A program made the translations under genes and the position numbers. From assembly GCA_010093705.1 (NCBI GenBank), contig MU006096.1:235558-299557 (forward strand): 64,000 nucleotides of DNA. Reading direction: 5' to 3'. Of this stretch, positions 18,090 through 21,121 are shown piece after piece (position 1 is the stretch's first letter; every line of letters begins with the position of its first letter). The notes below the pieces were generated by a model, which worked only from the letters and a program-made list of their open reading frames with translations, was not told the origin of the DNA and did not search any database. This DNA is from Patellaria atrata CBS 101060 (Eukaryota).

Positions 18090-18736
18090 CTACTTCTTCT
18101 TCGACGATGCGTCGAACTTCTCCTCCAATGTCCTCACATAATTTTCTATCCTCTGCACTGCAGCTTGTAATGCCTATAATGCACAGTTAGTCCAAGTATG
18201 ATCTCCCCGTACACCTACGCCCCAATAATTCCCCTTTCCACAACCGCCTTCCAGACACAAGTTCCAACACCGACGAATCAGTCAAGGAGAATAGATCGCA
18301 GACTTACGTAGATATCCGTCGTCAACAACTCATTCGACACCTTATACTCGTCCAGGACGTAATAGTACATGCCCGCGCCCGAAGCCACCGAGCCGAGCAA
18401 GAAACCGAAGATACTGCAAAGATCTCACATCAGCCATGACTCTAATCCTCACTCATACTCCCTCCACAAATCCGTTTATCCCATCTCCATACACCTGCAT
18501 CCCCAGTGCCAATTATCCCACGCTCTTGCTTCTTCTCCTCAACAAACAGGCATAAAAACTGATTGCAAAGAGAATCTAACTCACCCTCCCCTAAAAGCAC
18601 CCACGGGTTTCTTCACCGCCACCGGCGCTGCAGCCGCATCTCGCAGTATGCCGCTCGTCTGGAAGCTCCTGGTCTGGCGCGTGAGGGACGGTTGGACGGT
18701 TCGCCGGACGGCGGGAAGCAGGAAGCGGGATGCCAT
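18090..18736 (-). CDS. Small conserved fungal mitochondrial membrane protein, 3 exons
   Basis: Arg-rich presequence MASRFLLPAVRR; KKPVGAFRGG/IFGFLLGSV transmembrane segment; coiled-coil tail ending DASSKKK*. Confidence 0.8.
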
Positions 18737-19150
18737 CGTGCAGAGGTTCTTTCGTGAAGTGGACTGTAGGGTTCGATGGTGTATGGTTCGTGTGTTGTAG
18801 TTGAATTGGACGCGGGTTGAGATGGAGGTTAGGTTGAGGTGTGTTTTGGCGGTGGTGACGGGATCGGCAGCTGCAGCATGGAAGCTCTCCGCACGAGAAG
18901 CTCTGCTGGGTCCGGGATGGAGTGCTTGGCGTCTGTCAGAGGGATTCGACGTCACGTTAGTGGAGGAACTTGGAGGCTCTGGGATGATGGAGATAAAAGG
19001 AGGTAAGTAGCTTTATATCACGAGAGTACGGCTCGCCCGGTACCCTGTCATTATACTCCTATACCACCACCCTTACCCCCCTCCCCCCTCCCCAAAACGT
19101 GCCTCTCATCAGTCATCACTCCCCTCTCCAACCCAGTACCTGACCCTCTC

Positions 19151-19158
19151 CTATATAA
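19151..19158 (+). promoter_or_regulatory. TATA element upstream of putative Pol III unit
   Basis: CTATATAA about 30 nt upstream of the tRNA-like 5' end at 19186. Confidence 0.5.
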
Positions 19159-19185
19159 TCAACAGACAGCAAATACCTTTCTAAT

Positions 19186-19361
19186 TCCTCGATGGTCTAG
19201 TTGGTCCTTTCCTTCTGTCAAAGTCAATTTCGTATTTCCTTCAGTCAATGTTCGAGTCTCGTTAACACCAACCATTAAACCTCGGAAGATAAAAGATAAA
19301 CTGCCTCGGGGCGGGTTTACTTGGCCCTCTTCGGAGGGTGTTCTTTTTGTATTTTTTTTTT
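19186..19361 (+). ncRNA. Putative Pol III ncRNA with tRNA-Asp-like head and structured 3' domain (not a foldable tRNA)
   Basis: A box TGGTCTAGTTGG 19193-19204; B box GTTCGAGTC 19250-19258; hairpins 19297-19319 and C(UUCG)G 19324-19339; T5 at 19344-19348 and T10 at 19352-19361. Confidence 0.55.
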
Positions 19362-19657
19362 GCTGCTATTTAAACCAGTGCGTAGTTAATCTATATAGAG
19401 ATATCTTTATAGTGTTTACTACAAGGTGGATTGCTCATGACCAATTATACCCCTATGCTCCTCCCTACTTCAAGAGTTACTACGAAAACAAATCTAGATT
19501 TGCGGTAGCTGCACACGAAAATAAACCGTATCAAACATTTCTCACTCAATGATAGCTTAGCTATACGAATCGCGGATACAGACTCAAAATCTATTCATGG
19601 ATATATATACTATAAATACGGGTAGGCGTACAGTGGAACGACCTAGAAATACAAGCT

Positions 19658-21121
19658 TCAAGTGACCTTCGAAAACATATTCGACTTCGGATGTGCATGG
19701 TTAGGCGGCCTCGATGCTCCGCAAAGCCCGCAGCGACCGTAATCTCCAGCATTGATGTAGGAACCTCCCTGACATGCCAGGCTCTTACAGCGCCAGTTGT
19801 TCGGCATCTTAGCTGGGTTCAGCACATTTGAACAAGCTGCACATAACACCGTGTCAGGATCGTTGACGAGAGAACATACAGGACATATGTCGTTCGAGAT
19901 GGGAGGTTTAGAGCCTGGGAATTGTGCGGTCTTGTCTTGAGTTATATTGTCATGTGAGGCCATACGTCTGGATTTCGCGGACTTGGTCATGGCTGATCGG
20001 GGACGGGTATGCGAGATGGGCGCATTCGAGGACTTATTCCGACTGAGTCGCCGGGTTGACGCTGGCCTTGATGATTCAGAAGCGTCTGTTGTTTGATCCT
20101 CATCTAAGTCCATTAGTTTCTTGGGTTTCGACTGCAAACTTGGAGGATCTTCATGGTGTATGTAGTTAAACGAATATATCTCATCCATCTCGCGGTGAGC
20201 GTTCGTATCGTCGTCTTCACCCTCGCAGACTTTGACCAAGCCACGTCCTTTCCCGTCAGTCATTCTCTTCCCATCGATATCGATATCCGCTATCTGACTC
20301 GATCCTTCGTCATAGTCCGAGTCCGACTCGCTCTCCGACCGATCTTCCACCTTTACTTCCACTTTTTTCGCTTGGTCAAACCTCGCAAGCGCTGCCGCAG
20401 CCCTCAATTCCCTACCTCTCGCACTTCCAGCCACCCGAGGCTTCCCCTTAGACTTCTTCCCGTTCTCCAGTTTAGCCTTAATCTCTTCATCCGCCCCTAA
20501 AGCTGACCCACCAGCCCCAAACTTCTTCAGGATCCTCCTCTGCTGTCTTTCCGCATAACTCATCTTCTCCTTCTCCGCCTTCCTCTTCCTCTTCCCTCTC
20601 CCGCTCCGATACGTACCTCCACACAGTTGCTTCACCTCCCCTCCCGCAGCCGGCATCGTCTCCGTCTCATACCGTCCACTCAACAGCGACGTACCCCGTC
20701 CCCACATCCCCTCACCTATATACCTCCTCTCCCACAACTCTCTCAGCTCCGCCGCATACGCATCCCTAATCTTCCAAAACGCGCCCGAATGATTCATCTG
20801 CTTGCAATGCGCCAACTCATGCATCATAACCATCTGGACATGTTTAAACGGCAACCAAGCACCACCCGGCGCCTTCAAAACCAATTGGACGACCTCGCCC
20901 GCGTTGAAGTTCCGCCCCACGAACTCTCGGTTTGCGGGGAACTCCTCGAGCGCCATCACTGCGATGTGGTTTCGTTTCATGACGGGGTAGACGATGGCGG
21001 CGACGCGGTTGAGGAAGTCGAGGGCGAGGTCGTGGTCGATGCCTGGGAGCGGTTTGATGAAGTTTATCAGGGCGTTTGGGCGCTGCGTGCGCTCGTTGAT
21101 GCGTTCGAAGCCTAGAGGCAT
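19658..21121 (-). CDS. WLM-domain (Wss1-like) metalloprotease with C-terminal zinc fingers
   Basis: LEEF..N.EFVGRNFNAG; HELAH zinc motif; SHP-like FGAGGSALG; VIM-like RELRAAAALARF; C-terminal CxxC clusters. Confidence 0.9.
   Translation of the reverse strand: MPLGFERINERTQRPNALINFIKPLPGIDHDLALDFLNRVAAIVYPVMKRNHIAVMALEEFPANREFVGRNFNAGEVVQLVLKAPGGAWLPFKHVQMVMMHELAHCKQMNHSGAFWKIRDAYAAELRELWERRYIGEGMWGRGTSLLSGRYETETMPAAGGEVKQLCGGTYRSGRGKRKRKAEKEKMSYAERQQRRILKKFGAGGSALGADEEIKAKLENGKKSKGKPRVAGSARGRELRAAAALARFDQAKKVEVKVEDRSESESDSDYDEGSSQIADIDIDGKRMTDGKGRGLVKVCEGEDDDTNAHREMDEIYSFNYIHHEDPPSLQSKPKKLMDLDEDQTTDASESSRPASTRRLSRNKSSNAPISHTRPRSAMTKSAKSRRMASHDNITQDKTAQFPGSKPPISNDICPVCSLVNDPDTVLCAACSNVLNPAKMPNNWRCKSLACQGGSYINAGDYGRCGLCGASRPPNHAHPKSNMFSKVT

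Follow-up and report, generated by a model that had tools for sequence, protein, structure and literature searches.

Two loci of Saccharomyces cerevisiae, ZOD1 and iYGR033C, are relics of tRNA genes that are occupied by TFIIIC, TFIIIB, and Pol III (PMC5356446). The available part of that source describes both as single loci, describes ZOD1 as weakly transcribed, and gives the function of the RNAs as unknown. The low-copy AfuSINE2 elements of Aspergillus fumigatus are 140 to 493 bp in length; their A and B boxes are degenerate, they form no cloverleaf and end in oligo-T, and 5/8 elements are transcribed according to the portion of PMC5063351 available to us. In RPR1 and SNR52, the A and B boxes belong to the transcribed 5' leader. 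This leader, whose sequence does not permit a tRNA to be drawn, precedes RNase P RNA or a C/D snoRNA, respectively (PMC2566860 and PMC5356446, both available in part). The Yarrowia tRNA-5S and tRNA-Trp-RUF70 units and the Neurospora tRNA-Ala-milR-4 unit combine a tRNA-type promoter with a promoter-less downstream RNA and a T-tract end; in the available parts of PMC2566860 and PMC3547838, the tRNA that leads them is intact and functional, and cleavage by RNase Z behind this tRNA frees the second RNA.

Here, we describe a Pol III-type unit located on the plus strand at ca. 19151-19361 of a 64-kb window, i.e., the whole stretch of 64,000 nucleotides that was analyzed, from contig MU006096.1 of Patellaria atrata CBS 101060. 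The unit lies in the spacer between two minus-strand genes. Among described elements, the nearest appear to be ZOD1 and iYGR033C of yeast, together with AfuSINE2, which is low in copy number. Compared by description, the unit resembles the two yeast loci in its apparent origin from a tRNA gene, in encoding no tRNA, and in having kept the promoter elements. It differs from them in belonging to another fungal class, in having a TATA upstream, and in containing an internal duplication of 27 nt; moreover, occupancy and transcription have been shown for the yeast loci and would be predictions for the Patellaria unit. The features shared with AfuSINE2 are the A and B boxes, a head that does not fold, a tRNA-unrelated extension running to an oligo-T, and a Pezizomycotina host; in contrast to the perfect boxes of the unit, for which no target-site duplication was found, the part of PMC5063351 available to us reports degenerate boxes and target-site duplications of 4 to 14 bp. 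The likeness to RPR1 and SNR52 extends to the boxes, to a head that cannot be drawn as a tRNA, and to comparable lengths, but the tail of the unit, unlike the RNAs behind those leaders, matches no family. The putative arrangement of promoter, downstream RNA, and T tract is likewise that of the Yarrowia and Neurospora dicistronic units, from which the Patellaria unit differs by the lack of a tRNA fold.

Sequence features of the unit

The consensus sequences of the boxes are TRGYnnAnnnG for the A box and GWTCRAnnC for the B box (PMC2566860, available in part). The available text of PMC5356446 gives a range of 31 to 93 nt for a working gap between the A and B boxes and locates the usual Pol III start 10 to 12 nt 5' of the mature tRNA end. 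The features of the unit are as follows.

19152-19158, plus strand: TATATAA, candidate TFIIIB/TBP site, 28 to 34 nt before pseudo-tRNA position 1
19186-19192, plus strand: TCCTCGA, occupying the place of the 5' strand of a tRNA acceptor stem
19193-19204, plus strand: A box TGGTCTAGTTGG, directly 3' of TCCTCGA, at tRNA positions 8 to 19
19215-19221, plus strand: CTGTCAA, anticodon-like heptamer read in the sequence
19249-19259, plus strand: B box TGTTCGAGTCT, whose core GTTCGAGTC at 19250-19258 matches GWTCRAnnC
19260-19343, plus strand: tRNA-unrelated tail of ca. 85 nt with two small predicted hairpins
19301-19314, plus strand: hairpin CUGCC-UCGG-GGCGG (predicted fold)
19324-19339, plus strand: hairpin GCCCUC-UUCG-GAGGGU (predicted fold)
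19344-19348 and 19352-19361, plus strand: T5 and T10, separated by GTA, candidate Pol III terminator and fail-safe

All the motifs listed in an initial annotation of this DNA were found, with the positions of the T tracts right within a base or two, and its statement that the promoter and terminator signals are intact was borne out for the TATA, the A box, the B box, T5, and T10, as read in the sequence. The A box TGGTCTAGTTGG is a perfect match to TRGYNNARNNGG, and both this box and the B-box core GTTCGAGTC match the published TRGYnnAnnnG and GWTCRAnnC. In the 11-mer TGTTCGAGTCT, the two outer positions deviate from GGTTCGANNCC. With the T of TCCTCGA taken as position 1, the A box has its first base at position 8, which is the register of a tRNA gene. 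The gap between the A and B boxes is 45 nt and falls within the quoted range of 31 to 93 nt. The unit thus combines the boxes, the box gap, and the downstream oligo-T of a type-2 Pol III gene. The 10- to 12-nt rule predicts a start at ca. 19174-19176, some 20 to 30 nt 3' of the TATA. The likeness to a tRNA ends abruptly after the A box and on either side of the B-box core. No acceptor 3' strand complementary to TCCTCGA was detected 3' of the B box (ARAGORN and the Rfam tRNA model), and no T-stem pairing was found around the B box. Two of the signals could also be read otherwise, since TATATAA at 19152-19158 could equally be part of a Pol II promoter that drives the left-hand gene from the opposite strand, and the A-rich minus-strand equivalent of the T5/T10 region could be part of the 3'-end region of the right-hand gene.

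Comparison with chance expectation

The strict pattern, an A box followed by N25-70 and a B-box core, was searched on both strands of the window. The 64 kb contained one occurrence; the related fungal loci (511,077 bp) contained two, both inside a protein-coding region. Simulation of 300 windows by a first-order Markov model, with T5 required within 150 nt and TATA[AT]A 20 to 60 nt upstream, yielded means of 0.067 A-plus-B pairs and 0.003 such pairs with T5 per window (n = 300); the full composite including TATA was present in 0/300 simulated windows. A relaxed pattern was also used, allowing up to 1 mismatch in the A box and up to 2 mismatches in the 11-nt B box, with TATA[AT]A 15 to 60 nt upstream. 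In the 511,077 bp of related loci, this pattern retrieved 106 A-plus-B pairs, including 6 with T5 and 0 with both T5 and TATA. The window contained 6 relaxed pairs, among which only the unit at 19151-19361 had a perfect A box, only this unit had the upstream TATA[AT]A, and only this unit combined T5 and TATA. We therefore judged the unit to be of tRNA/Pol III origin rather than a product of chance, because the composite was found neither in the 300 simulated windows nor in the 511 kb of fungal DNA. As a pattern of letters, the type-2 Pol III architecture at 19151-19361 is real and statistically unusual.

Loss of the tRNA fold and internal duplication

ARAGORN detected 0 tRNA genes in the 64-kb window, and the Rfam tRNA model gave no match to the unit at an E value of ≤10, either in 18900-19600 (701 bases) or in 19175-19290 (116 bases). 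The cloverleaf stems therefore no longer pair, as had been claimed from inspection. The head (fold z score of +1.32) lacks the cloverleaf of a functional nuclear tRNA gene.

A direct repeat of 17 nt fills the space between the boxes (19208-19251, plus strand). Its two copies, TTTCCTTCTGTCAAAGT at 19208-19224 and TTTCCTTCAGTCAATGT at 19235-19251, are identical at 15/17 positions (88%) and have a spacing of 27. This level of identity was equaled by 1/200 shuffles, indicating that the inter-box region was remodeled by a local duplication of 27 nt. With a single copy of the repeat, the gap between the boxes would be 18 nt, which is under the known working range. This significant duplication points to free remodeling of the region. 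The putative Asp-likeness of the head (TCCTCGA and CTGTCAA) corresponds to what we take to be the appearance of fungal tRNA-Asp. CTGTCAA, the sole Asp-specific feature, is located in the first copy of the repeat, and its interpretation as a remnant of an anticodon loop is doubtful because the heptamer belongs to the 17-nt direct repeat. The Asp signature of the head thus appears weak. A literature search with words of the A box of the unit retrieved no relevant papers.

Folding and family of the putative RNA

Folding energies were compared with those of dinucleotide-shuffled sequences (n = 200 for each segment), with the following results.

Whole 159 nt: z +1.25, 181/200 shuffles fold as well
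Head: z +1.32, 185/200 shuffles fold as well
87-nt tail: z -0.88, 35/200 shuffles fold as well
Best 65-nt piece: z -1.67, 13/200 shuffles fold as well
Last 47 nt, including both hairpins: z -1.33, 21/200 shuffles fold as well

This comparison did not bear out the initial report of "~85 nt of foldable sequence," since the tail (z of -0.88) is within the range of the shuffles and even the best 65-nt piece reaches only a z of -1.67; the head fares worse than its shuffles. The tail hairpins are predicted on paper, and in the folding model they bear no mark of selection.

No Rfam family was detected in the window at the gathering score. At an E value of ≤10, the sole match in 18900-19600 was the bacterial small RNA model suhB, which aligned with the terminal hairpin and the T tract; at 16.2 bits versus a gathering score of 41, and with an E value of 1.3, this match was attributed to chance. 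The view that the unit belongs to no known Rfam family consequently held beyond this chance match. The absence of C/D and H/ACA motifs was also upheld by a search for boxes in the putative transcript (19175-19349): a C/D snoRNA was rejected because neither RTGATGA (≤1 mismatch) nor CTGA was present, and an H/ACA snoRNA was rejected because no ACA was present near the 3' end. No recognizable mature RNA, as found downstream of RPR1- and SNR52-type leaders, follows the head of the unit. A precursor of the Neurospora milR-4 type is not apparent either, as there is no tRNA fold and the tail hairpin of ca. 60 nt is matched by 13/200 shuffles. The initial interpretation thus divides into two parts. 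The Pol III-type unit is a reasonable reading, with a TATA at ca. -30, boxes at a functional gap, a double oligo-T, and a head unable to fold as a tRNA. The structured functional noncoding RNA of ca. 160 nt, or milRNA precursor, is unsupported, as no fold signal above the shuffles, Rfam family beyond one chance match, snoRNA boxes, or counterpart in the 11 syntenic spacers was found.

A plus-strand stop-to-stop frame of 181 codons (19007-19552) spans the whole spacer, including the unit. It was rejected as a coding exon, as it contains no ATG/GTG/TTG open reading frame (ORF) of ≥80 amino acids. About one frame of this length is expected per window by chance (arithmetic), aided by the C/T-rich composition. 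Pfam searches with the unit-spanning frames P0121 (19160-19366) and P0122 (minus frame) gave no match.

Neighboring genes and synteny

The window is gene-dense Pezizomycotina DNA; a scan of 21 large ORFs revealed none that belongs to a transposon. The unit is flanked by the following genes.

18278-18736, minus strand: left-hand small gene, ATG at 18736-18734, at least two exons
19658-21121, minus strand: right-hand gene, WLM-domain (Wss1-like) metalloprotease, Pfam PF08325, E value of 5.9e-25

The closest homologues of the WLM protein are ca. 51 to 61% identical and belong to Dothideomycetes and lichen-forming Pezizomycotina. The product of the left-hand gene begins with MASRFLLPAV, a presequence-like N terminus, and has no Pfam family. 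The promoter of the left-hand gene must fall between ca. 18740 and the Pol III-type unit. Directly 5' of TATATAA, the plus strand displays a C/T-rich tract (19060-19150) in which C runs are broken by T and A. Tracts of this kind typify Pol II promoters in fungi, so that the spacer may also contain elements of a Pol II promoter.

An alignment of 40 WLM proteins led to a synteny set of 80 loci from metagenome contigs (L001 to L080; 511,077 bp). The left-hand gene was found beside the WLM gene, in the orientation seen in the window, in 11/80 loci. On the gene content of these loci, the left-hand and WLM genes form a microsynteny that is conserved across distant Pezizomycotina. The left-hand gene has a conserved hydrophobic second exon and a WLM neighbor in at least 11 loci (L015, L011, L069, L018, and others), and a mitochondrial-carrier gene is found near the pair in some loci.

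The spacer from the WLM stop codon to the ATG of the left-hand gene is 921 bp in the window versus 329 to 520 bp in 10/11 syntenic loci and 1,207 bp in the remaining one. The 1,207-bp spacer (L001, 5422-6630) has a GC content of 36% and several T and A runs; it contains neither an A/B-box unit nor an Rfam match. Even with the relaxed pattern, no A/B pair was detected in the 11 syntenic spacers, save for a degenerate match on the opposite strand in L001. Syntenic orthologs, which had been proposed as a check on the unit, were therefore not found in these 11 spacers, which come from distant relatives (45 to 57% identity of the WLM protein). A blastn search with the unit against all 80 WLM-anchored loci retrieved only chance matches (best E value of 1.1), and Rfam searches of 18/80 loci (L004 and the loci with a good alignment of the left-hand gene) retrieved nothing. 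ARAGORN detected no tRNA genes in the 511,077 bp around the WLM orthologues of the 80 loci; tRNA genes are sparse in neighborhoods of this type, with none in the 80 loci and none in the 64-kb window. On this comparison with distant relatives, the unit is lineage-specific at the WLM-adjacent site. Its absence from such relatives says little on conservation within the genus.

Copies and flanking repeats

No second copy of the unit was found in the 64-kb window. As a proxy for copies elsewhere, P0122 (68 amino acids, minus frame across the unit) was compared with 1.84 billion protein representatives. The sole match, a repeat protein of 7,573 amino acids, was discarded as an artifact arising from many weak repeats (BLASTP E value of 0.55 per repeat). 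A search for flanking repeats of the target-site type gave a best flank alignment whose score was reached by 27/500 shuffles, and the best word shared beside the ends of the unit was a 7-mer equaled by 87/500 shuffles. The long flanking repeat formed by ATTATACTCCTAT and ATTATACCCCTAT, at 19050 and 19444 with a spacing of 394, would imply an element extending from 125 nt 5' of the A box to beyond the terminator; it was rejected since 27/500 shuffles score as well. The unit also differs from a typical SINE in its end, which is a T tract and not an A-rich, simple-repeat, or LINE-derived tail, and in the lack of target-site duplications.

Interpretation

Our best reading, to which we give even chances, regards the unit as a relic, specific to its lineage, of either a tRNA gene or a tRNA-derived element; a complete type-2 Pol III promoter and a terminator would have been kept and the tRNA body lost. 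The boxes and the position-8 register are present, and the tRNA fold is lost. The relic is probably still Pol III competent, in the manner of ZOD1, iYGR033C, or AfuSINE2, and an in situ relic of a tRNA gene on which the Pol III machinery still assembles appears to be the reading that needs least. The pattern of sequence retention within the unit argues in the opposite direction, since neutral decay should not leave a 12-nt A box and a 9-nt B-box core perfect amid scrambled surroundings. The sparing of these 21 box positions, with the rest scrambled, implies some past or present selection on the promoter, and the pattern suggests a selected promoter such as that of a SINE master copy or of a leader-type gene. 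Similarly, the TATA at ca. -30, the double terminator, and the C(UUCG)G hairpin just before it look "kept," which speaks against a relic.

Three other explanations were weighed against the relic. We consider it rather unlikely that the unit is one copy of a family of tRNA-derived SINEs or SINE-like retroposons. Intact A and B boxes, no cloverleaf, and a tRNA-unrelated body are the usual build of a SINE, low-copy elements of this kind ending in oligo-T are described for A. fumigatus in the available part of PMC5063351, and the spacer is ca. 400 to 590 bp longer than in 10/11 relatives, as if after an insertion. However, the 64 kb contain a single copy, the flanking repeats are not significant (27/500 shuffles, and 87/500 for the 7-mer), the tail is neither A-rich nor a simple repeat, and the TATA at ca. 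-30 would not accompany a retrocopy, as it is not in the transcribed part; moreover, the window is gene-dense, and none of 21 large ORFs scanned is of transposon type. In our estimation, a Pol III gene of the leader type, similar to RPR1 or SNR52, is quite unlikely. The decayed tRNA head would then be a transcribed promoter, and the ca. 85-nt tail (19260-19343) would be set free to form a new small RNA, such as a hairpin or milRNA precursor. This would agree with the comparable size of the RPR1 leader (84 nt) and with the 70-nt RNA of unknown function found behind tRNA-Trp genes in Yarrowia, both from the accessible portion of PMC2566860, as well as with the Neurospora milRNAs, which are mostly Pol III products with T-cluster ends in the accessible portion of PMC3547838; the tail of the unit itself ends in a stable UUCG hairpin followed by an oligo-T. 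Yet this tail has no Rfam family beyond a chance match to a terminator hairpin, no C, D, or 3' ACA boxes, and a fold within the range of the shuffles, and it has no counterpart in the 11 syntenic spacers (the best E value of blastn over 511 kb was 1.1). Nor is there an evident route to cut the tail from the head. A gene of the leader type would be expected to yield an RNA that is recognizable or at any rate conserved, and no support for one was obtained. The Neurospora milR-4 route requires cleavage by RNase Z behind an intact tRNA (PMC3547838, available in part) and, as described, does not apply to the unit because no intact tRNA is present. The more particular proposal of an SNR52/RPR1-like gene of Pezizomycotina, in which the decayed head would act as the Pol III promoter for a lineage-specific hairpin RNA of ca. 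85 nt and the 27-nt duplication would set the working gap between the A and B boxes, is in our view decidedly improbable.

We also regard as distinctly unlikely a chance co-occurrence of motifs in ordinary Pol II regulatory DNA, in which the TATA and its surroundings would be assigned to the promoter of the left-hand gene and the T tracts (A tracts on the minus strand) to the region of the WLM 3' end. Such an assignment would account for the location of the unit exactly between the 3' end of one gene and the promoter of the next, TATATAA is a TATA box on either strand, and the tRNA covariance model detects nothing in the unit. In addition, the scan in which the unit was noticed spanned very many windows, so that rare composites were bound to appear. 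Against this stand the low expectation per window (0.067 A-plus-B pairs, 0.003 with T5, and 0/300 simulated windows with TATA), the absence of the composite from 511 kb of real fungal DNA, and the exact start of the A box at position 8, after a 7-nt pseudo-acceptor strand.

Proposed mechanism

The mechanism that we propose for the tRNA-gene relic combines two kinds of information: the motifs, their spacing, and the missing tRNA fold and known RNA features are taken from the DNA, whereas factor binding, start, stop, and product are extrapolated from type-2 Pol III promoters. TFIIIC would bind both boxes (B at 19250-19258 and A at 19193-19204), which are 45 nt apart and separated by a space reshaped by what appears to be a 27-nt local duplication, and TFIIIB would then be placed over TATATAA (19152-19158). 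Pol III would start at ca. 19175-19185 and stop at T5 (19344-19348) or at T10, three bases further on. The predicted product is an RNA of ca. 165 to 185 nt with an unstructured head, two small 3' hairpins, and an oligo-U tail. RNase P and RNase Z would find nothing to cut in the head, because the acceptor and T stems are absent. The transcript is expected to be weak, unprocessed or quickly degraded, and devoid of a trans-acting role. A function, if any, would more likely be exerted at the DNA level, by a Pol III complex bound between two Pol II genes.

Significance

The weight of this observation is small at present, as it concerns one unconserved locus known from its sequence. If transcribed, the unit would be a Pezizomycotina example of an orphan Pol III unit derived from a tRNA relic; the described cases that we found come from budding yeast (ZOD1 and iYGR033C) and Aspergillus (SINE-like elements). 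Being natural and compact, the Pol III promoters of such loci can be put to practical use in expressing guide RNAs. The loci are also TFIIIC-bound landmarks able to influence adjacent Pol II genes, and they constitute raw material for new Pol III genes.
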